A stretch of DNA of 63,198 nucleotides, the filler included, from an uncultured Methanosarcinales archaeon (GTDB lineage Archaea; Nanobdellota; Nanobdellia; Woesearchaeales; JACPBV01): the NCBI GenBank assembly GCA_964492935.1. It is 3 parts of 3 records of this genome, joined end to end, with 100 filler letters (N's around TTAATTAATTAA, not from the genome) between each part and the next. Parts side by side here need not be neighbours in the genome. Positions count along the whole stretch, not along the records: positions 25,437 to 49,695 come from CAZBLF010000017.1; 2 more parts are not named here. The stretch is one strand, 5' to 3'. This document shows positions 9,335-41,113 of this stretch, one piece after another. Position numbers and translations under genes: made by a program. Each line of letters opens with the position of its first letter. Position 1 is the stretch's first letter. The notes beneath the pieces are model-generated. The model saw only the letters and a program-made list of their open reading frames with translations, was not told the origin of the DNA and searched no databases.

Positions 9335-9430
9335 TAGCCCCGGGCAGACTCGAACTGCCGTCCCGTGATCCAAAGTCACGGATGACTAGTCTCCTTGTTG
9401 CCAAGAATTTGACCACTACACTACGGGGCT
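9335..9430 (-). tRNA. tRNA-Gln(UUG) with a 23-nt intron in the D-arm (intron 9386-9408)
   Basis: Minus strand AGCCCCG-TA-GTGTAGTGGTCAA[ATTCTTGGCAACAAGGAGACTAG]TCAT-C-CGTGA-CTTTGGA-TCACG-GGAC-GGCAG-TTCGAGT-CTGCC-CGGGGCT-A. A1-U72 acceptor stem as in archaeal tRNA-Gln; CCA not encoded. Confidence 0.92.
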
Positions 9431-10107
9431 GTCATGCGGGTTAGAACCGCTTGCTTCCTTGGATTTGAAAAGCCGATATCTTTATAATATTTTCTTATTT
9501 GATCTTTCCTTGTTAGATAAACTCTATAACTTTTGTTGGGCTTTATATAGGTAACTTTAGAGGCTATGAATCCTAAAGATGCGAAGGCCCTGTGCAAATC
9601 CTTGACGAGAGTCAAATTGCGGTTATCGAATACTATCTGAAACAATCCTGGCCAATGAGATTTTAGTTCGTAAATAGACCCATCTGTGTCCATGAGGCCC
9701 CTAATTACTGCTCTCAGAAAACTCTTTTTCTCCCATATCCATTCTGGAATGGTAGTTTGATTCGCAATTTTGTTTCCTGGCTTTAGACCCATCCTTGTGC
9801 AGTAGTCAACTAATTTCCGACTGTGAACTATTACCATCAACTCATTGGCATTTTTTTGTTTGTAGAATTTTGCTTTCAACTCAAATAATTCTTCCATCAA
9901 ATTTGCTACATATCCTCTGAGATATTGATTGTCTCTGTTAGAATCTCCTGCAATTCTTACCATGTATGTGCCCACCTTTTTTCCTCGTTGGTAATGGTGT
10001 ATGTTTCCGTCGCCAAGAACTATTCCTATGAACTCTGCTAATTTGGACGATTTTCTGGGAGTCTTGATGTCCTTTAAACTTCCTTTACTTTTATTTGAAA
10101 TTGTCAT
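9421..10107 (-). CDS. Free-standing two-motif LAGLIDADG (DOD-type) homing endonuclease
   Basis: LAEFIGIVLGDG, GLKPGNK...IPEWI, FLRAVIRGLMDTDGS, IGFSNPRK. No intein splice residues. The stop codon lies within the tRNA 5' end. Confidence 0.88.
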   Translation of the reverse strand: MTISNKSKGSLKDIKTPRKSSKLAEFIGIVLGDGNIHHYQRGKKVGTYMVRIAGDSNRDNQYLRGYVANLMEELFELKAKFYKQKNANELMVIVHSRKLVDYCTRMGLKPGNKIANQTTIPEWIWEKKSFLRAVIRGLMDTDGSIYELKSHWPGLFQIVFDNRNLTLVKDLHRAFASLGFIASKVTYIKPNKSYRVYLTRKDQIRKYYKDIGFSNPRKQAVLTRMTAP

Positions 10108-10272
10108 CGGGGGGCGTTTGGCAATTTGAATAAATAGAAGTTGTTTATATACCCTGTGGCTGCACCTGGCAAGTGGCAAGTGCAAGACGAAAAGCGCTAA
10201 GAGGTAGGAATTTATTCTTGATAAAGGTTGACAGACTGGACAGCTCAATAGATCATTTGTTCCCTTAACTCC

Positions 10273-25336: not shown

Positions 25337-25436
25337 NNNNNNNNNNNNNNNNNNNNNNNNNNNNNNNNNNNNNNNNNNNNTTAATTAATTAANNNNNNNN
25401 NNNNNNNNNNNNNNNNNNNNNNNNNNNNNNNNNNNN
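25337..25436. other. Artificial contig linker (N44-TTAATTAATTAA-N44)
   Basis: All-frame-stop spacer between N runs. Confidence 0.98.
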
Positions 25437-26692
25437 TTTTCTGTTTTAACAGGTTCGTCACTTTTCTCAGCAACCACTTCCGCCGGTTTCTCAGCAATCG
25501 TTTCTACAGCAGGAGTTTCAGCAGGCTTCTCAGCTACAGGAGTCTCACTTACCGTTTCCGCCGGTTTCTCAACAGCAGGCGCAGCAACAACCTCTTCCTC
25601 AACAGGAGCACCAATCGGCGCATTCACAATCTCCATTTCCGGCTCCTCAGCTTTCTCAACAACCACTTCAGCAACTTTCTCAACAACCACTTCAGCTTCA
25701 ATTCTAGCCAATTCCGCCTTCGGATCGGGCTTAGTATCAACATCATTCGCCACAAACTCTAAACGTTCAAACATCTCATTTTTCTTAACCTTTCCCGTCA
25801 ACTTAACAATGTGCCCCAGCAATTCAGTCTTCACCTGCTCAAACTGATCGGGAGCATCCTTATACTGCATCATCTCTTCTTTCGATTTCCCAATCAATTC
25901 CTGTGCCTGGTCTCTAAAAAAAACAGCTCTAATCGTTTCAGTACCATCATCTAACACCGCATTCATCACATACGAAAAGTCAGGAGTAATCTGATTGCCA
26001 GTTGCATCTCTAAAAATACCCTCTCCATCCGGTCTCGACCTTCTTCCAGTAGTAGGATCAACCTCGAAAAAGCGTGGCTCAAATACTTGCACGACCGTAC
26101 CCATTAATTCAACATGATCGTCCGTTTCCGTTAACGCAGCGATACTTTTACGACTAGCAGGCTTACTCTGCTGCGTCGCCTTAACTTCGCCCATCGTCAC
26201 ACCCTCAGGATTAACAACAACTCCACTCTTATCATTCAGATGAATCTCAATCTTACCGTTATTCTCCCGAACATAACCAGAACTCACCTTAAGAATATCC
26301 TGCTCCTTAAATGTTGTAGTCAAATCAGCATGATCGCCCCACAATACAACCCTAATCGAGCCCGTCTCATCTGCAAGTACTACATTAGCAACCTTTCCTG
26401 GAGCGCCATCCTTCCTCTGAAACGTAGAAATTTGCGAAATGTTCAACACCTTTCCATCAACCTCAACATCGCGCATCCCCTCAAGGATATTCTCAATCTG
26501 TAATTTTCCAGTAACCGCATCAAATAATTTAACACTCAATTCGTTAGCAATAATATGTGCCGCACCCTCCTTACTGATCAATCCAGAAAGCTCCTCCATC
26601 TTAGCATCAATCTTCGCGTTCAATTCAGCGTCGGCAATACCACTATGTTCCTTAATCTTAGCAATAATCTGCTCTATCGGCATCTTTATCAT
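25437..26692 (-). CDS. Replication protein A-like OB-fold ssDNA-binding protein, 3'-truncated
   Basis: SGLISKEGAAHIIANEL, ADETGSIRVVLW, LDDGTETIRAVFF; acidic E/P/A/K-rich tail with AEKPAE repeats. Confidence 0.88.
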
Positions 26693-26743: not shown

Positions 26744-28228
26744 TTAATTAATCGGTGGAGCAATATATGTAGTGTATGCACCCTCTCCAAAGTTACCAAA
26801 CTCATTAAGACTGCCCGCATCGTCCTCCGCAATAATGACGAAACACGTTTCTTTGAGCAAATCCAGTTTCCTCTCAGTTTCCCCTAATGTAATTCCACTC
26901 TCCTGGAAGGGGAAAAACAACGGATCAAAATACGGCTCATCCTTTTCGGAGTCATACTCAATTTCTCTGAACGGTAGCACCAACGTCTCCCCCTCAGAAC
27001 ACTTGCCTTCCCTCTTCTGTTTAGCATAGAGTATAATCTTCTTCACATCAGACGACGGATTCTTGTCCCAAATCAATCTACCTGTCTTTGTACCCTCAAC
27101 CTCTTCCTGCTCGAATCCAGTATAGGCGAGTGGCTTAAAACTATCCCAAAACTGCATCCCAATCTTGATCGAAACCGGCGTTCCATCCCACCGATGACTA
27201 AAAGAATCATCAGTTATCTCAAAAACCAGCACATAGTCTTGCTTATTATCCGTCGGTGTTACTGTAAACGCACTAAATTCCGAGACCATGCGAGCAAGCG
27301 TAGGTTCTCCCTCAACACCATCTTTTTCTCCCAGGATCGCACCAGTACACCATTCGATATCGCTACCTTCGTGCACAACATTATAATCTTTTGCCTGCAA
27401 CAAACACTGCTCAAACTCCCCTTTGTACAGCTCTACAGCACCCTTCACCCGATCCATCCCCTTCAAAAAGTCATAATCCGAACTAATTCTAAATGCCGGC
27501 TTAATCGCATACACAACAGGCTCTATCTCTCGACACATATCCTCCCAATAACATCCCAATGTGCAAGGATCAAAGTCACACTGTATCTCATTGAGGTAAT
27601 CATCACATTCATTAGATTTTTTTGTACATATCTGCTCCGCCGAATCCTTACTACGACGAGCGGCATTCTGTCGCTTCAATCCAATGCCGGCCTCATTAAT
27701 CAAAGAGGCAGCTCTAGCTGAGGGAAAAACCGCATCTTTCGTCCCAATGCCAACCACTTCAAGCCCACTCCCTTTTTCCTCGTACACCAAATCAAAGTTA
27801 TCGAGGGGAATATTTTTTCCGGGAAAACGAAGTAGGTAACTATCTAATCGAGTATTAAATAATCCTTCAAAAGACTCCTGTAAGGCACCCTCCGTAGGAG
27901 TGCATCGGTGACGTTTCCTATCTTCCATCGATTTACTTCGTTCACTCTCGTCAATAGACTCCCAAACACCGTTTTCACATATTCCTCCGGCCTTAGTAAA
28001 AAACTCAGTTATCGTATCCTGGAGCACATACTCTGCACTCTGATCGACATACAGTAATGCCTTATGGCCTGAAGCGATTGCTTTGAGCTGCTCACTCTGC
28101 AACTCTCCTGTCTGCCCAGTATAAGGAACGATCTTTTGAGACATCTGTAGCGAGAACATCATCAAGAGTATAGAAGTAAATACAATCAAACTCAAACCCA
28201 TGGCAATCAATCCTTTTTTGTCCTTCAT
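26744..28228 (-). CDS. Pilin-like (class III signal) protein with a Cys-rich insert and C-terminal FN3-like domain
   Basis: MKDKKG/LIAMGLSLIVF; CxxxxxxC..C..C...C cluster; LIWDKNPSSDVKKIILY...CFVIIAEDDAGS. Confidence 0.65.
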   Translation of the reverse strand: MKDKKGLIAMGLSLIVFTSILLMMFSLQMSQKIVPYTGQTGELQSEQLKAIASGHKALLYVDQSAEYVLQDTITEFFTKAGGICENGVWESIDESERSKSMEDRKRHRCTPTEGALQESFEGLFNTRLDSYLLRFPGKNIPLDNFDLVYEEKGSGLEVVGIGTKDAVFPSARAASLINEAGIGLKRQNAARRSKDSAEQICTKKSNECDDYLNEIQCDFDPCTLGCYWEDMCREIEPVVYAIKPAFRISSDYDFLKGMDRVKGAVELYKGEFEQCLLQAKDYNVVHEGSDIEWCTGAILGEKDGVEGEPTLARMVSEFSAFTVTPTDNKQDYVLVFEITDDSFSHRWDGTPVSIKIGMQFWDSFKPLAYTGFEQEEVEGTKTGRLIWDKNPSSDVKKIILYAKQKREGKCSEGETLVLPFREIEYDSEKDEPYFDPLFFPFQESGITLGETERKLDLLKETCFVIIAEDDAGSLNEFGNFGEGAYTTYIAPPIN

Positions 28229-28689
28229 CGATATAGCTCCAGCCGATACTCCAAAGGCACTCGATCTCGTTGAGGCAACACAAAATCAAAAGAGTAGTCT
28301 TTCTTAGAAGCATAACATCCCTTAGTGCATTTTTTAGTAAGGAGACTATCTCCCAAATAAAGTTTGAATTTCTTATAAGAGGTTGTTTCAACTAATACCT
28401 TAAGCAATGCCTCATTTATTTCTGTAGAACGATCAACTCCCGTCGTCCCATCAATAGGCTCATAACTCAATATTTCGCGCAAGGGTTTAGTACCTACTTC
28501 GTACTCCAACAATCCTAGCAATAAAACAGTATCAGTATGTTCATCAAATGAAACTTTAATTGCAACCTCCTCCTTTCCGGCGATCTGAGGCTTTATACAT
28601 TGGGTCATCAGGACAAAAATGAAGAGCACAAATATCCAAAACATCACAAAGACTGCACGATCCGCACCCGTCCCTCTTTTCGATTTCAT
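28225..28689 (-). CDS. Pilin-like (class III signal) protein
   Basis: MKSKRG/TGADRAVFVMFWIFVLFIFV; translationally coupled to its neighbours. Confidence 0.6.
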   Translation of the reverse strand: MKSKRGTGADRAVFVMFWIFVLFIFVLMTQCIKPQIAGKEEVAIKVSFDEHTDTVLLLGLLEYEVGTKPLREILSYEPIDGTTGVDRSTEINEALLKVLVETTSYKKFKLYLGDSLLTKKCTKGCYASKKDYSFDFVLPQRDRVPLEYRLELYR

Positions 28690-29168
28690 CGGTAAAACAT
28701 AACCCCCTCAGTCAAATGAAGAGTCTTACCTGCAACAACAACCGGATACCTCAACTGAGTCCCACCAAAAACATTCCCGTTCTGATACACCGCAGAAGCA
28801 GCCCGATAAAGCTCAAGATTAAATCCCACAGGGTTCTGGCCCTGAAGTGTTAAAGCACCTGCAAAATCAGGATCTCCCAAGAACAATTTCTCAACCTGAT
28901 CCTGTGTAATCTTTTCCGAGTCAACAATCCAAGGATAGGTCCTTCCTGTAAGATTATCCTCCAGAAAAATAGAATCTCCACTAAATGCCAATCTGCTAGA
29001 GTACAGATAATGCTCCATATTGTAGGTATCGGCAGATCCCTTAAAGACAGAGAAAAACAAAACCGCGAATAATCCTAAGATAACAACAATGCCGACCATG
29101 TACCCCATGATATAGAAAACTAAATCAGACAACCCTCTCTTATTATTAAACAGCCTAGACAATTGCAT
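28686..29168 (-). CDS. Pilin-like (class III signal) protein
   Basis: NNKRG/LSDLVFYIMGYMVGIVVILGLF. Confidence 0.65.
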   Translation of the reverse strand: MQLSRLFNNKRGLSDLVFYIMGYMVGIVVILGLFAVLFFSVFKGSADTYNMEHYLYSSRLAFSGDSIFLEDNLTGRTYPWIVDSEKITQDQVEKLFLGDPDFAGALTLQGQNPVGFNLELYRAASAVYQNGNVFGGTQLRYPVVVAGKTLHLTEGVMFYR

Positions 29169-30234
29169 CCTGGATAACCCCTGGCAATTGCGATTTAGTT
29201 TGTGTACTCGTAAGTTCAGCATAACTAGCCTCATCGCGCAGGCTGCCAATTTCAAGAATCAAGCCGGCAACGTCAGGTCTGAGAAGCGGAACGAATCCCT
29301 CTCCCTCGCCACCTATAAGTTGAGCCTCATCAAGGGGAATAAGAGCAACTCCCTCAAGGCTAAGACTAGGAACATCCAAGAGATTATTCAGAATCTCACA
29401 TCCAAGACCTTTAGAAACTTCCAGAATCTCCTTAGGAGAATTCTTAAGATAATATGCTTTGATCGTTTTCCCAGCGAACGCCGAGCCAACGTGAATACTT
29501 ACAATTAAATCAACCTCCTTTTTTTGGCTAGCAGCCTGGATATCATTCGTAGACTTCCTCCGACCATCCTGCATTCGAGTGTAAAAAACATCCTCGATCT
29601 GAGTAGAAAGCAGCAGTTCCAAACTACTACCAAAGACATGAGTGAGTTCAGATTCTCTACGCCCATTGTAAACATGCCCATCATCTGCACCATGAGCAGC
29701 ATCAACTATAATGTGCTTAAAACCATGTTTACCTACCTCACAATCAAGGCTATGCAAGGAATAAGCGCGAGATCCATCTCCTTGATCCATAAACAATCCA
29801 TCATTAATGCGCGCAAACACCGGTTTCACCTTAGTCTTCTCAACGAGATTAGTAGAAATCTTCTCGCCAGCAAACCGTGGCGCCAAACTACCTTCATTGA
29901 CCGTTGCATGTCGATCGGCAAGAAAAGGATAGCTTGCTAGTTCAGTAATCGGCCTTGTTTCATCGTGAATTCCAACTACATTATCCTTAATGCGCAAACC
30001 AAACCATTTCATATTTTTATCATACGTAACAATCATATTCCCGGGAGAGGCATACAACGTATTAATCACCATCGCAACATCCCGTGCAAGAAAATTAGCC
30101 TCAAATCCTACTTCCTCAGTAATATTGACAATCTCCTTCATAATCGGTAGAAAATAAAACGCCGCAATCAACAAAAGACCAAAAATAGCTATAGGAATAA
30201 CGGCAGGTATCTCGCTTTGGCCCCTCTTTCCCAT
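29155..30234 (-). CDS. Pilin-like protein fused to an N-acetylmuramoyl-L-alanine amidase (Amidase_3) domain
   Basis: MGKRG/QSEIPAVIPIAIFGLLLIAAF. Amidase motifs IIVDAAHG, GRRESEL, VFYTR, DLIVSIH, LLR...GLILEIG give the H-E-H-E set. Confidence 0.8.
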   Translation of the reverse strand: MGKRGQSEIPAVIPIAIFGLLLIAAFYFLPIMKEIVNITEEVGFEANFLARDVAMVINTLYASPGNMIVTYDKNMKWFGLRIKDNVVGIHDETRPITELASYPFLADRHATVNEGSLAPRFAGEKISTNLVEKTKVKPVFARINDGLFMDQGDGSRAYSLHSLDCEVGKHGFKHIIVDAAHGADDGHVYNGRRESELTHVFGSSLELLLSTQIEDVFYTRMQDGRRKSTNDIQAASQKKEVDLIVSIHVGSAFAGKTIKAYYLKNSPKEILEVSKGLGCEILNNLLDVPSLSLEGVALIPLDEAQLIGGEGEGFVPLLRPDVAGLILEIGSLRDEASYAELTSTQTKSQLPGVIQDAIV

Positions 30235-30272
30235 AGACCCTCCCTCGAAGAAATGAGTTTATATATCTTATG

Positions 30273-30806
30273 TTATTTTTTCAATGTACTTAACGTAATC
30301 AAGGTATGTTGCACCTTAGAATTATCTTTACTAGCATCAACTTTCTTTTCAATAGAAAACCCCAGATCTACAGTCGCAATCTTATCATCTCCCTCCTTGA
30401 AATCAAAATCAACAATCTCTCCCTCCTTGCTCAAAATCTGGTGACAATACGGAGCTATTTTTTCGGCTCCCGTCGACTGCAAACACATCTTCGGCTCAGA
30501 TGCACAGTCAACCCCGCGTACCTGACTAGCCTCCGTACAGCGAGAGTAAAGCCTAATAATATTATTTGTGGTGAGAGCTAAAGGAATACTCGACGCCTGA
30601 CCCTTATGAAACTGAGTAACATATTCTGCAATTGAATCAAACGTCTCATAATTCACATTTTGAATATGTGCTTTTTGAGACTGACTGCACCATTTAGCAA
30701 CTGCAGGAATAAACACTATCAGAAAGACTACCAATATCGTCATCTGCAAGACTTCAGTCCAGGGCTGGTCGACAACACTCCCTTTCTTATTTTTTCTTAG
30801 CCCCAT
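30273..30806 (-). CDS. Pilin-like (class III signal) protein
   Basis: KNKKG/SVVDQPWTEVLQMTILVVFLIVF; Cys pairs. Confidence 0.6.
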   Translation of the reverse strand: MGLRKNKKGSVVDQPWTEVLQMTILVVFLIVFIPAVAKWCSQSQKAHIQNVNYETFDSIAEYVTQFHKGQASSIPLALTTNNIIRLYSRCTEASQVRGVDCASEPKMCLQSTGAEKIAPYCHQILSKEGEIVDFDFKEGDDKIATVDLGFSIEKKVDASKDNSKVQHTLITLSTLKK

Positions 30807-30817
30807 CTTTGGCTGGC

Positions 30818-31135
30818 TCAGTTATTTACTATAGGAGAACTCTGATAGCAATCCTTATCTCCACAATCACTAAAGGTGCCTGTAACCTTTTCCCAAGTTC
30901 TCCCGTTAGCAGGAGTGGGAGGCGTATCAGCACATTTTCTATTAGTATCAAAAAGACTCTTACATGCAGTTCCATCAGCCTGATTTAAAGCAGAATCAGC
31001 AGTTGTTTTGTAACCTTTAGTATATGTAAGAATACTCTCCTTGAAAATAAAACCAACAATAATCAATACCAACACCCCTAACGAGGCGATGATAATCATC
31101 GTAAACGAAAGCCCCTGACCCTTTTTCCGAACCAT
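30818..31135 (-). CDS. Small type IV pilin-like protein
   Basis: MVRKKG/QGLSFTMIIIASLGVLVLIIVGFIF; 4 Cys; own TATA box (31158-31165). Confidence 0.8.
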   Translation of the reverse strand: MVRKKGQGLSFTMIIIASLGVLVLIIVGFIFKESILTYTKGYKTTADSALNQADGTACKSLFDTNRKCADTPPTPANGRTWEKVTGTFSDCGDKDCYQSSPIVNN

Positions 31136-31213
31136 ACACAAAAACTCCATTTTCAAATATTTAAACCTTTGCAAAGGGAAAGCTATTTATACAGAAAATC
31201 CAGTATAGCAGCA

Positions 31214-31828
31214 ATGAACAAAAAAGCGATTGTTTGGTTGGTAATAGCGCTTGTAGTGATGGTCGCAGCAAGTTTCTGGCTCTTCGGAGAGCCAGGTATC
31301 AATGAAGCCGACCCAGAAACGTGGATCATACGAACTTCTCAAACACAAGCGGGTGTCGATTTGCAGGGCGCAACGGCGGGCAAGAGCTTCCTCAACGAAC
31401 AAGGGCTGCAATACCTTTCCGCTACTACCGCAACCACATTTGCCTTAGAAGGATGGTATCAAGGTAAACATTTCAGGCAAGTGTATGCTGATCAAGACGG
31501 GAGAGTTCAAATGAGAATCACCCCGAAGATGCAACCTTACGATGGTATCCCAGAAGGATTCATTTTGCAAAAGTTAGATCCTCCTGAGGCCTACATTTTC
31601 CTTGACCTAGACTGGAAGGAGAAGTATCCACAATCCGTGATCTACTGGGGACGCTTCTTCGAAAATGAACAGGCAGTTGATTTTTCCTCAGAAGTAAAAG
31701 GGATATATATAGACCGAATAGAAGATGACATTTCAAGATTCCAGGAGAACTTCAATATCCATGACGGTGGAGTGATGGTGGGAATTCTAAACGAGGATGA
31801 AACTTCTACGCTTATCCGATTGTCCTAA
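31214..31828 (+). CDS. Membrane-anchored hypothetical protein, on the opposite strand within the pilin array
   Basis: MNKKAIVWLVIALVVMVAASFWLF, then a beta-rich domain. Confidence 0.7.
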   Translation: MNKKAIVWLVIALVVMVAASFWLFGEPGINEADPETWIIRTSQTQAGVDLQGATAGKSFLNEQGLQYLSATTATTFALEGWYQGKHFRQVYADQDGRVQMRITPKMQPYDGIPEGFILQKLDPPEAYIFLDLDWKEKYPQSVIYWGRFFENEQAVDFSSEVKGIYIDRIEDDISRFQENFNIHDGGVMVGILNEDETSTLIRLS

Positions 31829-34800
31829 GTTTTTCCAATACTAAGTGTGCCCCACCCGCTCTTCTGCCATTCCTGAATCTCTTTTGAATCACGAGACGTA
31901 TCTCCGGTACCTCCAAAGCAAGCAGACACGGAAGGGATATGTCGAGGCCAAGCACCACATTTTTGTAATGCATATGAACCCGCTACAGCACCTAGTTCGA
32001 CACCTGAGACTGCAAGGGTCACAACGGCACCTGCCGATGTACCTCCCGAAATAGGAATCAGCGCTACAGCTGCGATTATCGCTGCCACATTAGCTGCAGT
32101 CGTAGCATATTCAAGATTAAGATTTCTTCCAGTATAGCAAAAATTGTTACCCCCATTCCAGTTAGAGTAGGAATCGAGGCGCGGAGTTGCAGAAACGCAA
32201 GGAATAGTAACTCTTCTTGATCCAGAGAACCGATTCGTCTTCGTAGGGACGAAAGTCTGCACGACGTCGGTTTCCCTACATACCTTGACTGCATTGACTT
32301 GTTCTGCGGTGGGCTGAGCTACAATATAGTTCCGAGGTAAAATATCCTTAATGAGATCATCAAGATAATCACTCTTGAGAAATCGTTTCATTTGCATCTT
32401 ATAAATGAGCTTACTGGTAGATTTGAACCAAACTAAGTTTCCATAATTGTTAGCTGGAGAATTGAGGAACAAGGGAAGATTTCTTTCTCGTCGATCCTGC
32501 AATCTTGACCATTCCAACTGAATCTTTGAAAAAACAAATGTCTCATCTGGAGAACTATAGAGGTATGTTAAACTAGTAGGGTCTTCAATGGGCCCTCTAT
32601 GACTAAAAATATTATTGAGCCGTTCATGACGCTCAGTATTTCTCATAAGGTCCCAATTAATTTCTAATACATCGCTTGGCTTCTCCCTAGGGTTTTTCCA
32701 AAATCTCTTAGAAAAGGGTAACCTCCAGACAGATTTAAAAGTTTGGGGGAGATCAAACGAGTCAATGTTGGGATTTTCATAAAAGAGCCCTCGTACGAGA
32801 TGTGCTAGTTCCTCCTTATCCCAATCATCAAGAGAAAGTTCACCTGAAACGATGGAGACAGAAGTAAGGTCGGAGACGAAATTGCTAGAAAAAACCTCGA
32901 GAAATCGCCGAAACCGTACCTCGTCCAGATCAAGAAGAGGAGTTAATTCAAGAAGGAATTCAATCTTATCATTTTTTCCATAAGGAGTTCCTACATGGTT
33001 TACAGATCCCGAGAACAATACATGCCCCATCATCATCACAAAAGTCTCCGCATCAGGAAAGAGAAACTTAAAAAGCTCGGTTCTCTCTAACACCAAGGGA
33101 TCTTTTTCTAAAAATCTGTTTTTTGGTAGGAGTTGATTGATGCGGGACTCGAGTCCATATCTCTGACTCACAGTCTTTTTGAAGGACCAGTCTTTGACTG
33201 TAAGGTATTCCTTCTTCTCTTCAGCGCTAAACGTATCCCACACGGTTTCGACAGTCTTTTCCACCCCAATTGCCTCAATAGGTTGTATTCGATTACCTTT
33301 TCCATCTTCACCTGAAAAATAGTAACCAAAATCTCCATCATTCATCTGACAGGAGCAGTAGTTCTTTGCGATTAGTAAATCTGCCTTACAAGGACTAGCC
33401 ATAAAAAATCGCTCAGGAGGTTGGCTAGGATCCTTATTCATTGTAAGGTACAGATTCTCAATTCCTACCGGATCGTACGGTTTTGGGGGGATCTTATAGG
33501 GTTTGGGCTTAGCAACACCAATGGTGTTTGGTCCCATTGGCACGAATGCTTGATTCCTACTTTCCTCAAGATTGTAGAGCATTCCAAAACCAATAGCCAC
33601 AGGTAAATAATTATACCGTAGGAATTTCATACATCCAGTAGCAGAACGAAAGGGACCATTGAAAACCCAGCTCAAGGGAGTTCCTTTTATGAGGAGTGTA
33701 GCCGCACCCACACCAGCACCCACAGCAACAGTACCATCACTAATAAATTGAGAGGCAACGCCTGCAGCAATGATAAATCCACCTACAGTAATGCAGTTGC
33801 CAATGCTTTTAGCACTATTTTTCGCCCAGAGCGTCCCAGCCAAACGAAACTCATCAGCACTTTTTGTATTGGATTTAACTGCAGTAACGAACTTGCTGTT
33901 CCAGATCCCTTTTGCAGACTCGTCAAGGTTACCTATGATGGCCTTTGCAGCTACCTCATCTGCCTGTGAAAGCCCAGTTAAATCTTTAGTCCACATTTGT
34001 TTAAGTACTTCATCTGAAGACCTAAGTCTTTTTGAAAGTGTGATCCCTCCAATATCATCAAAAGTCGCAAATTGCTTCTGGAGTGTCTCGATAGTATCAT
34101 CCCAATGGCCCGACTTGAAAAGCACCTCAGAAAAAGCTTCAGCATTGTTTCGCTTAATAATCAGTTCAAGTGCTTCAGCCGCCCTTTTATTAGAGACTCC
34201 TTCAGTAACCTCCTTCATTGTTTGCTTCAAGGCGTGCTTGGAGATGTAAGTCTTTCGTGTAGCATCAGTTAATTTTCCGATAACTCTTTTAACAGTACCG
34301 TCAATGATGTCATTCCCAAATCCAGCCCTTTGTAATTCACCACGTAAAATAGTTTCCATAGCATCCAGCCCTTTTTTCTTCGTCCCATGTTTAGTTGAGA
34401 TAGCTACATTAAGGAGATCATCCTTCACCCAGGTCTTTGAACTTTTTCCTTGTCGTTTGTAAGCATCAAAGACAAAATCAACAGCATCGTCAATCTTCTT
34501 CAGCTGCTCCTTTGCGAGATAAGGAGATGCATCACTGACACTTTCAGCCACCTGCGAAATAGTCTTACCTACCACCCCTCCACTTTTACCGAGATTTTTA
34601 GTTTTTGCAAGCAATTCTCCAGCTTCGTCGAAATTATCAACTGAGTTCGCAGCCTTTGCCAGAGCTCCTGCAGCAGCTTCGCCCGCTGCTTTAGTCCCTC
34701 GCAGAGCCTTCACAGCTGGACCAATAGCAGGCACAAACGCGAAAACTCCCTGGACAACAAGTCCAACATTAATCCAAAAGAAATCATGGGTCTGCCAGGA

Positions 34801-35976
34801 AGCTTTTTCTTTTTCCGGAAATTTCTCATAGTATACGAGATACTCAGGATCTCCAAGATTAGGGATATAATTGCTGAGCTTAGATGTATCTTGGGGAAGC
34901 TCAAATCCAGAGAGAGTGCAGACCGCTCCGCGCTGTTCAACATTTTGAGGGAGATTCTTATCAGTGAAGACAAATCGGTTTCCCTTCTGCAAGATGAGAT
35001 AGATTTCCCTTCCATATGATCGCGAATCGAGTTGATTTTTATCAGAAACGTAATGCATATCAAAGGAGATATGATCTTTCTTTAATCCCAACTGGCGATC
35101 CGAATCGGTAAAGAGGAGCTGAGAAGTAAAAAATCTGCTACTTGGAAGTTCCAATACTGCAACCGAGTTCTCTTTGAAGATCCGTTGTTTCCTTGAATCG
35201 ACCAGCGGTTCCAGAATCTCAATGCGTTGAACTGCATCTTTGCGCTCTCGCTCAATCTCAACCAATCGTGCTTTTCTTTCAGAAGCAATTTCCGGAAATT
35301 GGAATTCGGTGGCGAGTTCTTCTGAGATTTTCTCTTCCTCTTTAAGAAGCGCATCCAAACTGGCTGTCAAAGCCGACAATTCAGCAATCTCATCACCGAG
35401 TTCTTCAGAAACTCTTGCCGTATCTAATTCTATTCTTTTTGACAAGAGCTCACGCTTCCAAGGAGCAAAGGTAAGTCGAGCACAAAGCACCGGATTAGAA
35501 ATACGGTTATGTTTTCGCAGGCATGATCTCATTGCGTCTGTAATACTAGCGGCATTGTCTACAATCTTTGTTCCAAGCGGAAGTGTAGGGGTAACCTCGC
35601 AGTTCACGCATTTATCAGTTCCAAATAGTACTCCTTCACAACTCGCCTTCTCAGAGTCGGATGATTCGTCTTTGTCAGGAGTCTTTGATCCAAGACACCA
35701 AGAAGGATCTACAGATCCCTTAGCAACAGAAGAAAAAGCACACATCAAAGCATTCATAGAATCATCAATAATATGCTCCTCTGCAGTAAACACCGCTTTA
35801 TACGGGGTAAATTTAGTCTTCCCGGTAAAGTCCGCGCGAGTATTATTGAGGAGCTTTTTCGAGGAAGAAAAAGCATCAGGATACACTGCAAAAATAATCA
35901 ATCCAAGAACAATCGCACCAATAACTATCTCGACTACGTTAGACCATACCAAAAAACCCCTTTTATTGCGCATCAT
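31825..35976 (-). CDS. Giant pilin-like (class III signal) protein with a coiled coil and several internal Gly/Ala-rich hydrophobic segments
   Basis: MMRNKRG/FLVWSNVVEIVIGAIVLGLIIF; heptad region; hydrophobic segments near 34790-34700, 33790-33570 and 32110-31970; scattered Cys pairs. Confidence 0.75.
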   Translation of the reverse strand: MMRNKRGFLVWSNVVEIVIGAIVLGLIIFAVYPDAFSSSKKLLNNTRADFTGKTKFTPYKAVFTAEEHIIDDSMNALMCAFSSVAKGSVDPSWCLGSKTPDKDESSDSEKASCEGVLFGTDKCVNCEVTPTLPLGTKIVDNAASITDAMRSCLRKHNRISNPVLCARLTFAPWKRELLSKRIELDTARVSEELGDEIAELSALTASLDALLKEEEKISEELATEFQFPEIASERKARLVEIERERKDAVQRIEILEPLVDSRKQRIFKENSVAVLELPSSRFFTSQLLFTDSDRQLGLKKDHISFDMHYVSDKNQLDSRSYGREIYLILQKGNRFVFTDKNLPQNVEQRGAVCTLSGFELPQDTSKLSNYIPNLGDPEYLVYYEKFPEKEKASWQTHDFFWINVGLVVQGVFAFVPAIGPAVKALRGTKAAGEAAAGALAKAANSVDNFDEAGELLAKTKNLGKSGGVVGKTISQVAESVSDASPYLAKEQLKKIDDAVDFVFDAYKRQGKSSKTWVKDDLLNVAISTKHGTKKKGLDAMETILRGELQRAGFGNDIIDGTVKRVIGKLTDATRKTYISKHALKQTMKEVTEGVSNKRAAEALELIIKRNNAEAFSEVLFKSGHWDDTIETLQKQFATFDDIGGITLSKRLRSSDEVLKQMWTKDLTGLSQADEVAAKAIIGNLDESAKGIWNSKFVTAVKSNTKSADEFRLAGTLWAKNSAKSIGNCITVGGFIIAAGVASQFISDGTVAVGAGVGAATLLIKGTPLSWVFNGPFRSATGCMKFLRYNYLPVAIGFGMLYNLEESRNQAFVPMGPNTIGVAKPKPYKIPPKPYDPVGIENLYLTMNKDPSQPPERFFMASPCKADLLIAKNYCSCQMNDGDFGYYFSGEDGKGNRIQPIEAIGVEKTVETVWDTFSAEEKKEYLTVKDWSFKKTVSQRYGLESRINQLLPKNRFLEKDPLVLERTELFKFLFPDAETFVMMMGHVLFSGSVNHVGTPYGKNDKIEFLLELTPLLDLDEVRFRRFLEVFSSNFVSDLTSVSIVSGELSLDDWDKEELAHLVRGLFYENPNIDSFDLPQTFKSVWRLPFSKRFWKNPREKPSDVLEINWDLMRNTERHERLNNIFSHRGPIEDPTSLTYLYSSPDETFVFSKIQLEWSRLQDRRERNLPLFLNSPANNYGNLVWFKSTSKLIYKMQMKRFLKSDYLDDLIKDILPRNYIVAQPTAEQVNAVKVCRETDVVQTFVPTKTNRFSGSRRVTIPCVSATPRLDSYSNWNGGNNFCYTGRNLNLEYATTAANVAAIIAAVALIPISGGTSAGAVVTLAVSGVELGAVAGSYALQKCGAWPRHIPSVSACFGGTGDTSRDSKEIQEWQKSGWGTLSIGKT

Positions 35977-35978
35977 GT

Positions 35979-36122
35979 TCAAAAAAAACTACCGATATCT
36001 TTAAGCAGACTAGTCCCTTCATTCTGTGCCTGAAAAACATAAAACAACAAAAAGACCAAAGCGATGCCCGCTAAGATAAACAAGACCAGTTGATTAAATG
36101 CTAAACCTTTCTTCAATCTCAT
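35979..36122 (-). CDS. 47-aa micro-pilin, not in the ORF track
   Basis: Hand translation MRLKKG/LAFNQLVLFILAGIALVFLLFYVFQAQNEGTSLLKDIGSFF. ATGA overlap with the upstream gene; its stop is 2 nt before the giant gene's ATG. Confidence 0.75.
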   Translation of the reverse strand: MRLKKGLAFNQLVLFILAGIALVFLLFYVFQAQNEGTSLLKDIGSFF

Positions 36123-37168
36123 TTCACTTTCGCCTCCACTTCTTTAAGCTTACAGCTAACCTGGTACTGATCAAGCGGCATCAGCTGAACGACATCAAAA
36201 ATCTCCTCGGGAGGACTGCCTGAAAACCGTCGTGCAATTTCAGCCGATAGCTGACTAAGTTGTTGCTTATTAAACCGCTTATACACCACAGCAAGATCGT
36301 TGTTTTTAAGCTTATCAGTCGAAGATTTTTTCTCAATATCATAGGGATAGCTTGTAAAAAAGTCACTCACTAGAGAATCATCTTTAATATACTCCCAAAA
36401 ACTCTCTGTGCTAACTCTACTGGTAGGATTATTCTTCAGGAAGGCATCCATAGTAGACCCACCAGCAAATAGAGTAGCGACATCATCTCTGAATTGAATA
36501 ACCTCACACAAATCACAATAGATAACGGTGGAGGCACCAGTAATTTCATCAAAAATACCTGCATCGTGCCATTGTTTTCCAATAGGCAGATCTCCCTGCC
36601 CATTTCGTCCCCAACACCGCTTCATCGCCTTTGCTATAGCTTCCTCAAAACGATATTCAACCAAAAAAGGAACCCTGCCATTTTTCCCAAGTAAAGGATC
36701 CTTATTAGTGAGATATTCGGCAATGCCTCCCGGACCGTCAAATTTATCTTTCTTCATGCGATCATTCTGATCCTCTAAACTATCCCTCGGCTCATTATAC
36801 CACTTAGCAATATTTTTAATGTCAGCTTTCGCAAACGGATCGTTAAGATCAACAACACTAGGATCATCAGAATCACCCACCAAAGAGAGTGTATGGAAAA
36901 TGGGAGTACAACTAGCACCCCACACAGTGATACCTGCTATCGGAATCTTAGTATAGGCACTAACCACTTTCTTAGCCAAACAAAAGAAATAATCCTCCCC
37001 TATACCTCTCATCAACGCAAATGCTGACGAATAAAATCGCAAAGCAATAATCATAATCACGGCCATCATAATAACCGTAACAATAATACCTTCAGACATT
37101 CCTTTCTTATTCTCAGGAAAAAGGTACTGCTTAAATCTCAATAACCAAGAATCTTTTTCCTTACTCAT
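36119..37168 (-). CDS. Pilin-like (class III signal) protein
   Basis: ENKKG/MSEGIIVTVIMMAVIMIIAL; IAKAMKRCW..G.G and YCDLC motifs. Confidence 0.7.
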   Translation of the reverse strand: MSKEKDSWLLRFKQYLFPENKKGMSEGIIVTVIMMAVIMIIALRFYSSAFALMRGIGEDYFFCLAKKVVSAYTKIPIAGITVWGASCTPIFHTLSLVGDSDDPSVVDLNDPFAKADIKNIAKWYNEPRDSLEDQNDRMKKDKFDGPGGIAEYLTNKDPLLGKNGRVPFLVEYRFEEAIAKAMKRCWGRNGQGDLPIGKQWHDAGIFDEITGASTVIYCDLCEVIQFRDDVATLFAGGSTMDAFLKNNPTSRVSTESFWEYIKDDSLVSDFFTSYPYDIEKKSSTDKLKNNDLAVVYKRFNKQQLSQLSAEIARRFSGSPPEEIFDVVQLMPLDQYQVSCKLKEVEAKVK

Positions 37169-37302
37169 TTGAATGGGTTCAATTCAGCCATCTGACCTCT
37201 TAACAAAAATATTGCAACCGCAAAGATAAATGCGAGGGATACCAAGATCAATATCCACCCCATAGGCAAGCCTGTCTCTGTTGCCTGCCCTCTCTTATCC
37301 AT
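37165..37302 (-). CDS. 45-aa micro-pilin
   Basis: MDKRG/QATETGLPMGWILILVSLAFIFAVAIFLL; TTTATAAA 23 nt upstream; the track start at 37428 is too long. Confidence 0.75.
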   Translation of the reverse strand: MDKRGQATETGLPMGWILILVSLAFIFAVAIFLLRGQMAELNPFK

Positions 37303-37396
37303 ACCACTACCTGTAGAAACCAAGTTTATAAACATTTGTTTTCCACCGAGAGATGAACGAGGAAAGAAAATACACTCTCGCAACACCAGAAATGTC

Positions 37397-37534
37397 TTAT
37401 GACAACCCAACCGCATCCAAAATAACAAACGTATCGTTAAAAAGAACCAGTTTCTGTATCATCATCCAAAGAATAGCTAACAACACTAACAAAATAATAA
37501 TCTTAAATGCAGAAACATCATTAATCTTTAACAT
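37397..37534 (-). CDS. Putative 45-aa hydrophobic microprotein, not in the ORF track
   Basis: Hand translation MLKINDVSAFKIIILLVLLAILWMMIQKLVLFNDTFVILDAVGLS; pilin-like hydrophobic core but no K-G cleavage motif. Confidence 0.35.
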   Translation of the reverse strand: MLKINDVSAFKIIILLVLLAILWMMIQKLVLFNDTFVILDAVGLS

Positions 37535-37549
37535 AAAAAGGAAAAAAAA

Positions 37550-37822
37550 TTAGAACTGCGTACAGCAGATCTTACCATCAGCCAAGTTAAAGCTTCCAGC
37601 GATTTTTGAGCCTGTTGGACATCCACCCTCGGCGTCAGCATCCTGTACAACTCCACCGATAGCTGCACTATCGCAAGTTAATCCTTCCTGCTGCTCATCC
37701 AATCCCTTATTGAAAGCTCCCATTCTACCCGTAAAGATTGCCCAAAGAACAACCAATACAATAAGAACAATAGCTGCAATAATAACCGTGTTAAGACTTA
37801 GTCCCTGTGCTTTCTTTTTCAT
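37550..37822 (-). CDS. Small type IV pilin-like protein (candidate major pilin)
   Basis: MKKKA/QGLSLNTVIIAAIVLIVLVVLWAIFTG; C..GG..C..CC tail; RBS GAGGTG and TATA box. Confidence 0.85.
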   Translation of the reverse strand: MKKKAQGLSLNTVIIAAIVLIVLVVLWAIFTGRMGAFNKGLDEQQEGLTCDSAAIGGVVQDADAEGGCPTGSKIAGSFNLADGKICCTQF

Positions 37823-37951
37823 ATATGACACCTCTGAATATATTCCAAGATATTGATAGATACAAATCAGCTCAAGTAGTATATAAACCTTTTGGAAATC
37901 GGAGATTTCCAATGGTACCAGAAATGGAATTTCTATGTACCTTTCGATAAC

Positions 37952-38212
37952 TTAGAATAAACGCTTCCGTCGCCTAAAGATGGGAATGAACGGTATAAAT
38001 CCACCTAAAATATCTGTTGGAAGCCCAGTAAGTGCTCCCGTATCATCCACATCGATGCCATCCACATTATCTTGGGCCTTCGTAGCCTTTTCACTGAATG
38101 TACCAGCCCGACCCGTAAAAATAACCCAAATCACAACCAATACTAACAACACAATAATCGCCAGAATAATAACATTCAACGGCAAGCCCTGACCTTTTTT
38201 AGTAAATTTCAT
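37952..38212 (-). CDS. Small type IV pilin-like protein
   Basis: KKG/QGLPLNVIILAIIVLLVLVVIWVIFTG; hydrophobic plus RRRKR C-terminus. Confidence 0.85.
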   Translation of the reverse strand: MKFTKKGQGLPLNVIILAIIVLLVLVVIWVIFTGRAGTFSEKATKAQDNVDGIDVDDTGALTGLPTDILGGFIPFIPIFRRRKRLF

Positions 38213-38234
38213 TTCCAAACTTCTTCAATCAATA

Positions 38235-38513
38235 CTATATGGCTACTTTTGGAACACATTTTGCGGCTTTAATCTCACAGTTGGCGGCCTTAAAGCAGGC
38301 ACCATCTTGCGTTACATCAGTAATAGCACTACAAACTCCCAAAATATTAGCAATCTTATCAGTTTCTAATTCGTTCTCCTGCTCCACAACCTTAGTACTA
38401 AATGTACCAATCCTACCCGTAAAAATAACCCAAATCACAATCAACACCAACAGAACAATGACTGCTATGATGATAACGTTCAACGGTAACCCCTGTCCCT
38501 TTTTCTTCATCAT
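38235..38513 (-). CDS. Small type IV pilin-like protein
   Basis: KKKG/QGLPLNVIIIAVIVLLVLIVIWVIFTG; 4 Cys; TATA box 38532-38540. Confidence 0.85.
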   Translation of the reverse strand: MMKKKGQGLPLNVIIIAVIVLLVLIVIWVIFTGRIGTFSTKVVEQENELETDKIANILGVCSAITDVTQDGACFKAANCEIKAAKCVPKVAI

Positions 38514-38560
38514 CTTATTTCCATGAATTTGTTATATAAATGTTTTGGATATTTCTGAAA

Positions 38561-38935
38561 TTAAGTATTAGGAATCCACTCACAAGGAGAGCTACAACTT
38601 CCCCTAGTCCGCTCAGAAGAACAGGACGGAAAATTACAGGTAGTATCAAAAGTTCCAGAATTATCTATACATCCAGAAGGACATCTCCTAGAACCCAAGT
38701 TACCAATAGGATCACAACCTCCAACCTTCTGCCTACAAGTACCATCACTACTACCACCGAAAATGTCCTCAATCTCTCCCTTAAGACCTTCTCTCTCACC
38801 TTCCTGCTTTTCCAAATCTTTAGCAAAATTCGTCGAAGAGCCCTTAAAAATCACAAACACCACAACAAGAACAACTAATACAATAATGCCGATGATAATA
38901 ACCTGCCACGGCAATCCCTGACCTTTTTTATCCAT
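38561..38935 (-). CDS. Small type IV pilin-like protein, Cys-rich
   Basis: MDKKG/QGLPWQVIIIGIIVLVVLVVVFVIF; 8 Cys; TATA box 38958-38967. Confidence 0.85.
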   Translation of the reverse strand: MDKKGQGLPWQVIIIGIIVLVVLVVVFVIFKGSSTNFAKDLEKQEGEREGLKGEIEDIFGGSSDGTCRQKVGGCDPIGNLGSRRCPSGCIDNSGTFDTTCNFPSCSSERTRGSCSSPCEWIPNT

Positions 38936-38974
38936 ACAATCACACCGATATTTCTAGTATTTAAATATTTCCGT

Positions 38975-39457
38975 TCAATCACAAATATCCATCTTCAAAA
39001 TCAGAGTATTCAACCCCGTCGTATCCAAAGGAATCGGATACGGTTTACTCTTAAACCCAGCCGGACAACCTGGGCCAGCTTTCAACACCGAAAATCCGGC
39101 CTGCGTTGCAGCTGTAAATCTAAACTTAACCCTCCACTGATCAAACGTCGCATTAAAAATCAACGGAACCTCCCGCTCCAAAAAGTCACAGGTCGTTTCG
39201 CCAGAGCAAATCAAAGCATTCCCCTGATTCTTAGCACAGTGCTGGAACACCTCCTCAAACGTCATCTTGTTACAATTCACCACCGTAGTCCGCAAGATCG
39301 AACTCAACATATTAGAAGCCATCTCCGTCTGCGTAAACGACTGCTTATAGGATGCCGGCTCCTTCAACACCACAAAACGGATTGCAAACAGCATCGCCAC
39401 CGAGATCAATATCACAATAACCGCAAGCCCCATAATCTCCATCTGACCGCGCCTCAT
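38975..39457 (-). CDS. Minor pilin-like (class III signal) protein
   Basis: MRRG/QMEIMGLAVIVILISVAMLF. Confidence 0.8.
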   Translation of the reverse strand: MRRGQMEIMGLAVIVILISVAMLFAIRFVVLKEPASYKQSFTQTEMASNMLSSILRTTVVNCNKMTFEEVFQHCAKNQGNALICSGETTCDFLEREVPLIFNATFDQWRVKFRFTAATQAGFSVLKAGPGCPAGFKSKPYPIPLDTTGLNTLILKMDICD

Positions 39458-39954
39458 GAGTACACCTCAACCACCAACACGCCCATATTAAAATTCCCGG
39501 TGGTAGCATCGTACAAGGAAGTAGGAATAAACGTAGACAATTTATCGGTGAACGTTGCAGGAACATTTTCATAAATCAACAAATCTCCGCCCGAAGGAAA
39601 CAATTGCTGAACCGTTACCCGACTAAACCCAAATAAATCAAAATAATGCAATTGATTATCAGGAACAATTTCATCGATATGCGACAACTTAAACAAATCA
39701 ATACAATTTTCCTTCCGCACATTATCTCTAGAACATTGCAATTCCGGTAAAAAAGAAACTCTCTGCGCAACCCCAATCGCCTGCAGCTGGATATTCTCCT
39801 GAAACTCCGCCTGAGAGCTGCTCCCCAAGATCTTCATGTAAAACACAAAACCAAACACAATCAGAATAAAGAAGACAAAGAGGATAGCAACACTTTCCCC
39901 CATCTGTATTTGTCCCTTCCTTTTCGCAGATATGCGGAATGCTGGCTTCATCAT
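39454..39954 (-). CDS. Minor pilin-like (class III signal) protein
   Basis: KRKG/QIQMGESVAILFVFFILIVFGF; PELQCS..NCID. Confidence 0.8.
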   Translation of the reverse strand: MMKPAFRISAKRKGQIQMGESVAILFVFFILIVFGFVFYMKILGSSSQAEFQENIQLQAIGVAQRVSFLPELQCSRDNVRKENCIDLFKLSHIDEIVPDNQLHYFDLFGFSRVTVQQLFPSGGDLLIYENVPATFTDKLSTFIPTSLYDATTGNFNMGVLVVEVYS

Positions 39955-41009
39955 CAGTAAATCAACTCGCAACTCAATAACTGTAACTGCCGGTTCTGAT
40001 CATTCTTCAAACTTACCATATTGTCCTGAATATTCGAAAGAGGAGTTATCCCTGTTCGATGCGGATACGAAACACTCAAGTCAGTAGCAATAGACTCAAG
40101 CACACTCAAAAACCGATCGTGATGAAACGTAAAGCATCCTCCAGAACCATAAAACTTCTGCAACTCCAAACTGCGATTAACGTAAATGCTACTCACCAAC
40201 GCCAACCGCGAAAACGCATTACGCATCGCACAATTATAGTTTTCAGCCGTCCCAGAGTAGATCGCACCAAACAACGCATCATCGTTCATGTAAAATGTTT
40301 TTGCAGGAGGATCTTCAAAGGCAGAACCCTCTTTCCTATAAAACTCCACATTCCCAAACCGTGGAATACTATCCTTGCCCTGCAAGTCAGGAAAGGCAAC
40401 CGCACTAATTTTTTCATCATCCACATTCAACAATGAATTTTGAAAAACATCACCATTTACCGCTCCCAAAAAAATAAACCGAATGTGCGGATCATTCCGA
40501 TCTTCTAATCCAGCAAAATCAACCACATCAATAACCTCTTTATTCATCTCCCTTGGAAGAGTATCAAAAATCTTTTTCCCCAAATCCTTACTATTATTCA
40601 CAATAATATACCGAATCACCGGATCCGTCAGATACAGAAAGTTCATCACTCTGTACGGAACACTCCAATCGCGCGCCCACGTGATCATCTTTCGACCCTC
40701 TATCCGAGTAGGAGCAAAAACAACATTATCTCCCGTCTGCTTTCGAACACTCCCAATCGCGTAACTCCCACATTCAAAATCTACCGTGGTCTGCGGCAGA
40801 TCAAATACGTTAACCGTATTAGTAGAAATTTCAGCACCAGTGAAGATAGATGCTAAGCTAGTAGCAACCGAAGCACTTGTACGAAGTGCAGAAACATCCC
40901 TCTGTTTGTTCACCACCGTGATAAAAAAAGTGAGAATAAGCCCGCCAGCTATCAAAACAAAGATCCAATTAAACTGTATCTCTATCTGCCCTCTTTTTTT
41001 TCGTAACAT
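39954..41009 (-). CDS. Minor pilin-like (class III signal) protein
   Basis: RKKRG/QIEIQFNWIFVLIAGGLILTFF; ends NRQLQLLSCELIY. Confidence 0.8.
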   Translation of the reverse strand: MLRKKRGQIEIQFNWIFVLIAGGLILTFFITVVNKQRDVSALRTSASVATSLASIFTGAEISTNTVNVFDLPQTTVDFECGSYAIGSVRKQTGDNVVFAPTRIEGRKMITWARDWSVPYRVMNFLYLTDPVIRYIIVNNSKDLGKKIFDTLPREMNKEVIDVVDFAGLEDRNDPHIRFIFLGAVNGDVFQNSLLNVDDEKISAVAFPDLQGKDSIPRFGNVEFYRKEGSAFEDPPAKTFYMNDDALFGAIYSGTAENYNCAMRNAFSRLALVSSIYVNRSLELQKFYGSGGCFTFHHDRFLSVLESIATDLSVSYPHRTGITPLSNIQDNMVSLKNDQNRQLQLLSCELIY

Positions 41010-41113
41010 ATAGGTAAACCTACACAATGATAACTTCAGCAGTACTGGTTTATTAAACTAACCCTCAAAAAGCGATAGACAAATTTATATACTCCTGCCC
41101 CAAGAAAAAGAAA

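Follow-up and report, generated by a model that had tools for sequence, protein, structure and literature searches.

We identified a gene for a pilin-like protein with a C-terminal murein amidase domain (Amidase_3) in an archaeal genome. The gene lies in a stretch of 63,198 nucleotides (the window) from an uncultured Methanosarcinales archaeon (GCA_964492935.1; GTDB Nanobdellota; Woesearchaeales; JACPBV01), which consists of three contigs joined through spacers at 25337-25436 and 49696-49795. The middle contig (C17, CAZBLF010000017.1, window 25437-49695) carries the gene. The source genome comprises 1.15 Mb in 57 contigs, with an estimated completeness of 84.8% and 0.13% contamination. The gene occupies 29155..30234 on the minus strand, as do all parts given below, and codes for 359 aa from an ATG start, as judged from the open reading frame (ORF), the Pfam match and a codon check. 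All motifs quoted in a preliminary description of this DNA (MGKRGQSE, IIVDAAHG, RRESEL, VFYTR, LIVSIHVG and LILEIG) are present in its translation. Residues 1-35 (30130..30234) contain a prepilin-like class III leader, MGKRG/QSE, and a hydrophobic helix, and residues 1-152 (29779..30234) form the N-terminal pilin-like domain, in which an AlphaFold2 (AF2) model places a helix (residues 12-62) on a β-sheet. An inter-domain linker follows (residues 153-173, 29716..29778), in which the predicted local distance difference test score (pLDDT) of the full-length model falls below 50 at residues 154-157. The Amidase_3 domain, supported by Pfam, Foldseek, a family profile and the codon check, spans residues 174-358 (29161..29715).

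The preliminary description had read a peptidoglycan amidase in the C-terminal part of the protein, and both sequence and structure comparisons bore this out. The hidden Markov model (HMM) of Amidase_3 (PF01520) matched residues 175-358 with 49.3 bits (curated cut-off 27, E 7.8e-13), corresponding to profile positions 1-172 of 174, so that the match exceeds the cut-off over the whole domain; a genome-wide search gave the same assignment. A full-length AF2 model based on 11 homologues had a mean pLDDT of 74.9. In Foldseek searches, the PDB matches with E <1e-5 were all Amidase_3-family entries. The best were 4rn7 (target TM-score 0.76), CwlD (7rag), AmiB (8c0j), AmiC2 (5emi) and CwlV (1jwq), and others included Rv3717, LytH and PlyPSA; E-values were about 1e-10 to 1e-6 over the set, with target TM-scores of 0.58-0.76 for single-domain chains and sequence identities of 12-22%. 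A phmmer search of PDB sequences with the single protein gave no match at E ≤0.01. The family profile matched Cwp6 (1.4e-17), CwlD (1.7e-13) and CwlV (3.6e-13), and its DAGHG, EK, SIH and LE(I/V)G blocks aligned with those of the three enzymes. The domain is an Amidase_3 domain in identity and in fold.

The His-Glu-His zinc ligands and the catalytic Glu expected of such an enzyme have clear counterparts in the aligned motif blocks, as had been claimed. The predicted residues are His181 (codon 29692-29694), Glu194 (29653-29655), His248 (29491-29493) and Glu328 (29251-29253), all confirmed by the codon check; the ligands in the CwlV, CwlD and Cwp6 structures we take to be the residues aligned with them. 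None of the four varies among the 10 closest full-length homologues (30-44% identity), an alignment with only 32 invariant columns in all. An earlier caveat, that the protein has SIHVG where SIHAN is the consensus, is correct as sequence and minor beside the active-site decay across the family described below. Judged from these residues, the domain probably works in the source genome as a zinc amidase on the bond between N-acetylmuramic acid (MurNAc) and L-Ala of bacterial murein.

An exhaustive profile search recovered the family to which the protein belongs: 147 cluster representatives at E ≤1e-30, most of them aligned end-to-end at 310-380 aa (a word-index search gave only 3 proteins). The family alignment used here contains 145 of the best 150 sequences, five short fragments having been dropped (P0019, P0020, P0055, P0142 and P0146). 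A [KR][GA] leader followed by a hydrophobic helix is present in 129 of these 145 members. In the window protein the leader reads MGKRG/QSEIPAVIPIAIFGLLLIAAFYF, with a basic residue and a Gly before the putative cleavage site and, after it, the hydrophobic helix, which includes an 18-residue hydrophobic window. A short Pfam model of class III signals had no match in this protein at E up to 1. When residues 1-170 were modelled alone with AF2 on 29 orthologues, the model reached a pLDDT of 85.8 and a predicted TM-score of 0.73, and showed helix 12-62 packed on a sheet. A structure search of the ESM Atlas with the N-terminal domain (N-domain) returned small archaeal hypothetical proteins (TM 0.58-0.65) and bacterial clusters of type II secretion system (T2SS) protein I, PilV and PilX. 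Based on the model, the N-domain is probably pilin-like and of the minor-pilin type, with the structural matches serving as leads only.

The protein has only two cysteines: Cys165 lies in the linker (codon 29740-29742) and Cys279 on an amidase-domain helix (codon 29398-29400). Cys165 is present in 88% of the 145 members and Cys279 in 96%, which makes the latter the best conserved position of the whole family. The two residues co-occur in 127 members, and 111 members have exactly two Cys residues. The pair is better conserved than the active site, and the conservation pattern suggests that a Cys165-Cys279 disulfide probably pins the amidase domain to the linker.

The amidase gene is the fourth from the downstream end of a cluster of 14 co-directional genes (26744..41027, minus strand), all of which (14/14) code for a prepilin-like leader. 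Many of these leaders have Gln at position +1, for example KKG/QGL, RRG/QME and KRG/QIE. The 13 other genes had no Pfam match at or above the gathering cut-off and gave sub-threshold matches only. Three tandem small paralogues (37550-38935, minus strand; ~90-124 aa), with near-identical KKG/QGLP leaders and Cys-rich C-termini, are likely the major filament subunits. A giant protein of 1385 aa (31825-35982, minus strand) combines a prepilin-like leader with a stretch resembling a coiled coil, several hydrophobic segments in its interior and a further hydrophobic region at the C-terminus, and belongs to no Pfam or NCBIfam family; its orthologues of 1375 and 1139 aa are found near the amidase gene on two Woesearchaeota contigs (L017 and L018). 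That the giant stands in for a platform protein is speculation. The order of the flanking genes recurs in the loci of related genomes, with products of ~176 aa, ~360 aa (amidase-bearing), ~160 aa and ~150 aa. Elsewhere in the genome we detected genes for a prepilin peptidase (Peptidase_A24, 50.4 bits, contig C1) and a T2SSE-type ATPase (51.1 bits, contig C12).

The archaeal host without murein of its own, also claimed in the preliminary description, was supported. A locus search with an alignment of closer homologues gave four related loci in named records, two titled 'Candidatus Woesearchaeota archaeon', one 'Nanoarchaeota archaeon' and one 'uncultured Methanosarcinales archaeon'; a locus search with the single protein as query confirmed none of 599 candidate stretches. 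The edge of C17 carries a gene of the replication protein A (RPA) type with OB-fold and Rep_fac-A_C domains. No penicillin-binding protein (PBP) transpeptidase, SEDS (shape, elongation, division and sporulation) protein or SLT domain was found in this 84.8%-complete genome, and bacterial control genomes were positive for all three. We rejected a bacterial or mis-binned contig in view of the RPA-type gene, the 14 archaeal-type prepilin genes, the orthologous loci in genomes of the same family and order, and the low estimated contamination.

The genome codes for a second, unrelated murein amidase, an Amidase_2 protein (PF01510, 73.8 bits) of 384 aa on contig C2 (L040:1345-2499, plus strand). It has a twin-arginine-like (Tat) N-terminal signal, and its C-terminal half contains two repeats and had no Pfam match. 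An archaeal RNase P Rpr2 gene adjoins the Amidase_2 gene.

Near-identical DNA of the amidase locus was detected in 20 public runs from 18 studies, labelled as marine, seawater, aquatic and hydrothermal vent metagenomes, with five rows that are possibly the source of the window; no RNA dataset was listed for the locus. In four runs not marked as possible source, contigs matched the locus at ≥99%, with zero indels and zero base differences inside the gene. Some of the runs leave stretches of the gene uncovered. Given the matches in contigs of four runs, the gene is not an assembly artefact. The codons of His181 and Glu194 were covered in three of these runs, that of His248 in all four and that of Glu328 in two.

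We further checked the occurrence of the N-domain in sampled genomes of the phylum. Its profile matched 246 of 301 genomes (245 of 300 at ≥90% completeness), usually with one match per genome; among the genomes in these and the following tallies, G005 and G278 are flagged as unpublished. This breadth makes the N-domain protein a conserved core component of the surface apparatus. Open-frame lengths were counted by hand in 150 match rows, with 102 further rows outside the count. Among these 150 matches, 81 frames were at least 260 aa long, 2 were intermediate (217 and 241 aa) and 67 were shorter than 200 aa, and the 15 rows from other orders of the class were all short (117-168 aa). Among the matches listed, only those from the window's own order have the C-terminal extension.

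Pfam scans of 30 N-domain orthologues revealed 10 with Amidase_3 over the cut-off, 2 with weak matches, 1 with a 3D domain and 17 without a Pfam match. The 3D domain (PF06725, 50.2 bits) is at the C-terminus of a 617-aa orthologue in genome G048 (L031:997-2850, minus strand), which also has a weak amidase-like stretch; none of the other 29 carries a second wall-related domain. We take this domain to be the one found in MltA-type lytic transglycosylases. Together with the Amidase_2 protein on C2, it supports peptidoglycan as the kind of molecule that this lineage handles outside the cell. Another orthologue, in genome G020 (L036:1677-2920, minus strand), was divided between a 123-aa N-domain ORF and a 291-aa Amidase_3 ORF (40.9 bits, profile positions 1-118), owing either to a frameshift or to a natural split.

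We propose that the window protein is a minor-pilin-like subunit at the cell surface that binds bacterial peptidoglycan and probably also cleaves it, and we rate the chances of this reading as about even. The A24 prepilin peptidase would cleave the precursor after KRG (at Gly5), so that the mature protein would start with Gln6, and the long hydrophobic helix would then serve as its anchor, either in the membrane or within the core of a pilus-like filament. The protein would probably be a low-copy, tip-type subunit of a type IV pilus-like apparatus conserved across Woesearchaeota-type DPANN archaea. The Amidase_3 module would be exposed outside the cell, held at the linker by the putative disulfide. 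On contact with a bacterium, it may bind the MurNAc-peptide junction and cut the MurNAc-L-Ala amide bond, such that the wall would be opened or gripped, or muropeptides released. As the zinc ligands and the catalytic Glu are kept in the source genome, the protein most likely binds and cuts bacterial peptidoglycan.

Several results on both halves of the protein weigh against this reading and are set out here and below. Pfam detected Amidase_3 in only 28 of the 301 phylum genomes, with scores over the cut-off in 26, and in the same frame as the N-domain it exceeded the cut-off in 11 of the 301, including the window's own. The remaining Amidase_3 matches of the phylum are in other architectures. 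The best of them (147.8 bits; G108:C20:26052-26657, minus strand; same class) is within a 2515-aa open frame and others are in open frames of 440-726 aa, which indicates that Amidase_3 is also deployed on what appear to be giant surface proteins in this phylum. Seven long forms among the 17 orthologues without a Pfam match are decayed amidase homologues, as hhalign aligned them over the full length (99.5%, E 2.5e-23). In this sample of orthologues, the amidase domain has thus decayed rather than been exchanged for other wall-cutting domains.

Loss of the active site is also evident across the family. The complete His-Glu-His-Glu tetrad is intact in 67 of the 145 representatives by HMM alignment and in 68 by MAFFT; by the former count, 78 have lost at least one of the four residues. 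Position by position, the MAFFT alignment has the expected residue in 84 (first His), 111 (first Glu), 86 (second His) and 127 (second Glu) of the 145. On a FastTree tree of these sequences, the distribution of intact and decayed states needs 29 changes, at least 14 of which are forced by well-supported branches (mean after shuffling, 48); many branches are long, so the exact count is soft. Even the nearest relative, P0002 (280 aa, 63% identity, from marine metagenome sources), reads VDA---ADDG where the window protein has VDAAHGADDG, an in-frame deletion of three residues that removes His181. P0002, which is called from an internal Met, keeps Glu194, His248 and Glu328; either its gene is in decay or it can do without the catalytic site. 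With 67 intact tetrads among 145, activity cannot be assumed for every family member, and since about half of the relatives, the nearest included, lack catalytic residues, wall binding may matter as much as cutting. The preliminary description was sound as to the domain, the pilin-like N-terminus and the archaeal host; against a purely catalytic weapon stand the intact tetrads in only 67 of 145 members, the 14-29 changes of state and the absence of His181 from P0002.

These losses support the strongest alternative, in which the amidase-fold domain would be mainly a non-catalytic recognition or structural module in the source genome too, lectin-like for the bacterial wall or another glycopeptide, and the tetrad an unselected remnant. 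Besides the number of decayed representatives, their scatter over the tree and the state of P0002, this alternative is favoured by the decayed long forms, which stay full-length homologues, and by positions outside the tetrad: the cysteine pair, G330, N283 and D178 are conserved as well as or better than His181 and His248. We consider it possible but somewhat doubtful for the window protein itself. All four catalytic residues are invariant in its 10 closest full-length homologues in spite of identities as low as 30-44%, the covered catalytic codons show no change in the runs not marked as source, and Glu328 is kept in 126 of the 145 members by HMM alignment (fraction 0.869). Both cysteines are present in 63 of the 67 intact and 64 of the 78 decayed members; retention of the pair in both forms fits an extracellular protein whose fold is selected with or without catalysis. 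Since many members retain the fold and the cysteine pair but not the catalytic site, the core role across the family is probably wall recognition or structural, and hydrolysis is probably an add-on retained in a minority of lineages, including that of the window.

A second alternative concerns location rather than chemistry. The prepilin-like leader might be only a membrane anchor or a route to the surface, and the amidase a cell-bound ectoenzyme outside any filament, by analogy with the Sulfolobus bindosome, whose sugar-binding proteins have class III signals. The similarity of the N-domain to solved pilins is indeed weak. Foldseek gave no match for the N-domain model at E ≤1e-3, a result that does not show a new fold, and in an exhaustive VIA-align search the highest Z was 4.0 and no chain reached Z 5, which is below the trusted level. 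The gene for a PilC/TadC platform protein (T2SSF, PF00482) was not found in the 84.8%-complete genome, and the ATPase gene is on another contig. Nevertheless, we regard a role as anchor alone as unlikely. The N-domain model has the helix and sheet build of a pilin, and the amidase gene is located among 13 other prepilin-like genes, including the three small major-pilin-like paralogues. Weak as the structural matches are, the best of them are to tip-forming minor pilins and to pseudopilins: the top VIA-align rows were rich in such proteins, with EpsI (2ret) and GspI (3ci0) at Z 4.0, PilA4 and PilE at 3.8, XcpV at 3.5, and PilV, PilX and others at 3.0-3.3. Of the original description of this half of the protein, the archaeal prepilin-type leader and the pilin-type helix and sheet stand; the position at the end of a filament does not follow from fold matches to minor pilins of Z ≤4.0.

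Least probable, and in our view quite unlikely, is an active enzyme with a substrate other than murein, either the cell's own envelope or pilus glycoproteins (in maturation or remodelling) or the wall of an archaeal host, for example pseudomurein: the near-universal, single-copy N-domain protein (246 of 301 genomes) would fit a housekeeping role in assembly, and SIHVG and other consensus positions have drifted, but the family is named for MurNAc-L-Ala cleavage, the solved chains at Foldseek E <1e-5 are all Amidase_3, the genome has the unrelated second murein amidase with an export signal, orthologue L031 carries the 3D domain, active-site loss in half of the lineages would be surprising for a housekeeping enzyme, and the metagenomes with this locus come from seawater, marine and vent habitats, in most of which pseudomurein-bearing methanogens are uncommon.

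The window protein can be compared with three kinds of known proteins. With the bacterial Amidase_3 enzymes CwlV (1jwq), CwlD (7rag, 4rn7), LytH (7tj4), Nostoc AmiC2 (5emi) and Cwp6 (5j72) it shares the fold, a domain of ~185 aa and the aligned His-Glu-His and Glu residues. LytH and CwlD are membrane-tethered as well. However, the window protein is only 12-22% identical to these enzymes, its amidase domain is old within the order, and it is encoded by an archaeon in which murein synthesis genes were not found. Its tether is a prepilin-like leader with a pilin-like domain instead of a plain transmembrane helix or a lipobox. Its family has a specific Cys pair and is catalytically decayed in half of its members, and the window protein contains no known wall-binding domain. 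The minor pilins and pseudopilins GspI/EpsI (2ret, 3ci0), XcpV (5bw0), PilE, PilV and PilX are similar to the N-domain, as modelled, in having a hydrophobic helix on a small β-sheet, and modular minor pilins such as Streptococcus sanguinis PilB (7b7p) also carry an extra functional module at the C-terminus. In contrast to these bacterial minor pilins, to which the structural match is weak and sequence similarity undetectable, the window protein has an archaeal-type leader, in which [KR]G precedes a Q at +1. We know of no bacterial minor pilin with an Amidase_3 module. A duality of enzyme and binder is known from animal peptidoglycan recognition proteins (PGRPs), which have the Amidase_2 fold and include catalytic and non-catalytic, receptor-like versions in one family. 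PGRPs differ from the window family in fold, lineage and the lack of a filament context, and the likeness is an analogy only.

Murein hydrolases in DPANN archaea are already known. The available parts of PMC8204110 and PMC9723730 describe large SLT/GH23 proteins in Woesearchaeota and Pacearchaeota, and those of PMC12352652 report that 175 of 3,706 archaeal genomes code for modular peptidoglycan hydrolases, which are 'particularly prominent' in Nanoarchaeota, and describe a haloarchaeal enzyme of this kind shown to kill a bacterium. Like the window protein, these have bacterial-type wall-degrading domains in archaea without murein and have been read as evidence of interaction with bacteria. Unlike it, they are lytic transglycosylases, or combine catalytic and wall-binding domains with Sec/Tat signals. 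As described in the available part of PMC12352652, that survey required a wall-binding domain beside the catalytic domain; as the window protein has no known wall-binding domain, such a filter would not count it. The words 'pilin' and 'pili' are absent from the text of PMC12352652 and PMC9723730, and 'pili' is absent from that of PMC8204110, in which 'pilin' was not searched for. Type IV pili of archaea were surveyed in 2016 (PMC4858521) in a text that contains none of the terms amidase, peptidoglycan, murein and DPANN. In titles and abstract openings of the literature on DPANN or Woesearchaeota pili and peptidoglycan amidases, we did not find a pilin-fused archaeal amidase, although the supplementary tables of PMC12352652 and PMC8204110 may list the family. 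What is new here is the near-universal minor-pilin-like carrier, the repeated decay of the active site and the retention of the cysteine pair regardless of it; the link to bacterial partners is suggestive.

According to the available part of PMC11291902, cultivated DPANN archaea have archaeal hosts, a point in favour of a non-murein substrate. A surface subunit with a peptidoglycan-specific module would offer a concrete, testable handle on physical interaction between Woesearchaeota and bacteria, and the window protein could serve as bait or as a probe to find partner cells. Built-in controls are available in the natural range of intact and decayed active sites, which also shows how, within a single family of filament subunits, an enzyme has repeatedly become a probable binding module. 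The organism is widespread, with near-identical DNA in metagenomes from 18 studies, so any interaction with bacteria would matter ecologically. We also put forward, tentatively and with the balance of probability against it, a broader view in which a type IV pilus-like machine present across the lineage serves to recognise and hold bacterial walls and, in some lineages, to breach them, the murein amidase module of its conserved minor-pilin-like subunit alternating in evolution between cutting and binding-only forms. Such a machine, if real, would act across domains as a device for attachment or predation, and would be direct molecular evidence that bacteria, and not other archaea, are what many marine DPANN archaea live on.

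Additional features of the window are as follows. Each of the two spacers consists of two runs of 44 N flanking TTAATTAATTAA, and the ORFs listed across them, 25385-26692 and 48027-49751, are cut at contig ends. Searches of the window for tRNA genes and Rfam families found none. On contig C16, a free-standing LAGLIDADG_3 ORF of 275 aa (9421-10248, minus strand) is located directly 3' of a GatB/GatE-type gene. The same contig codes for a 1193-aa subtilase (2764-6345, plus strand), with Peptidase_S8 at residues 159-412 and a long C-terminal region that belongs to no family, which may be another large exported protein.

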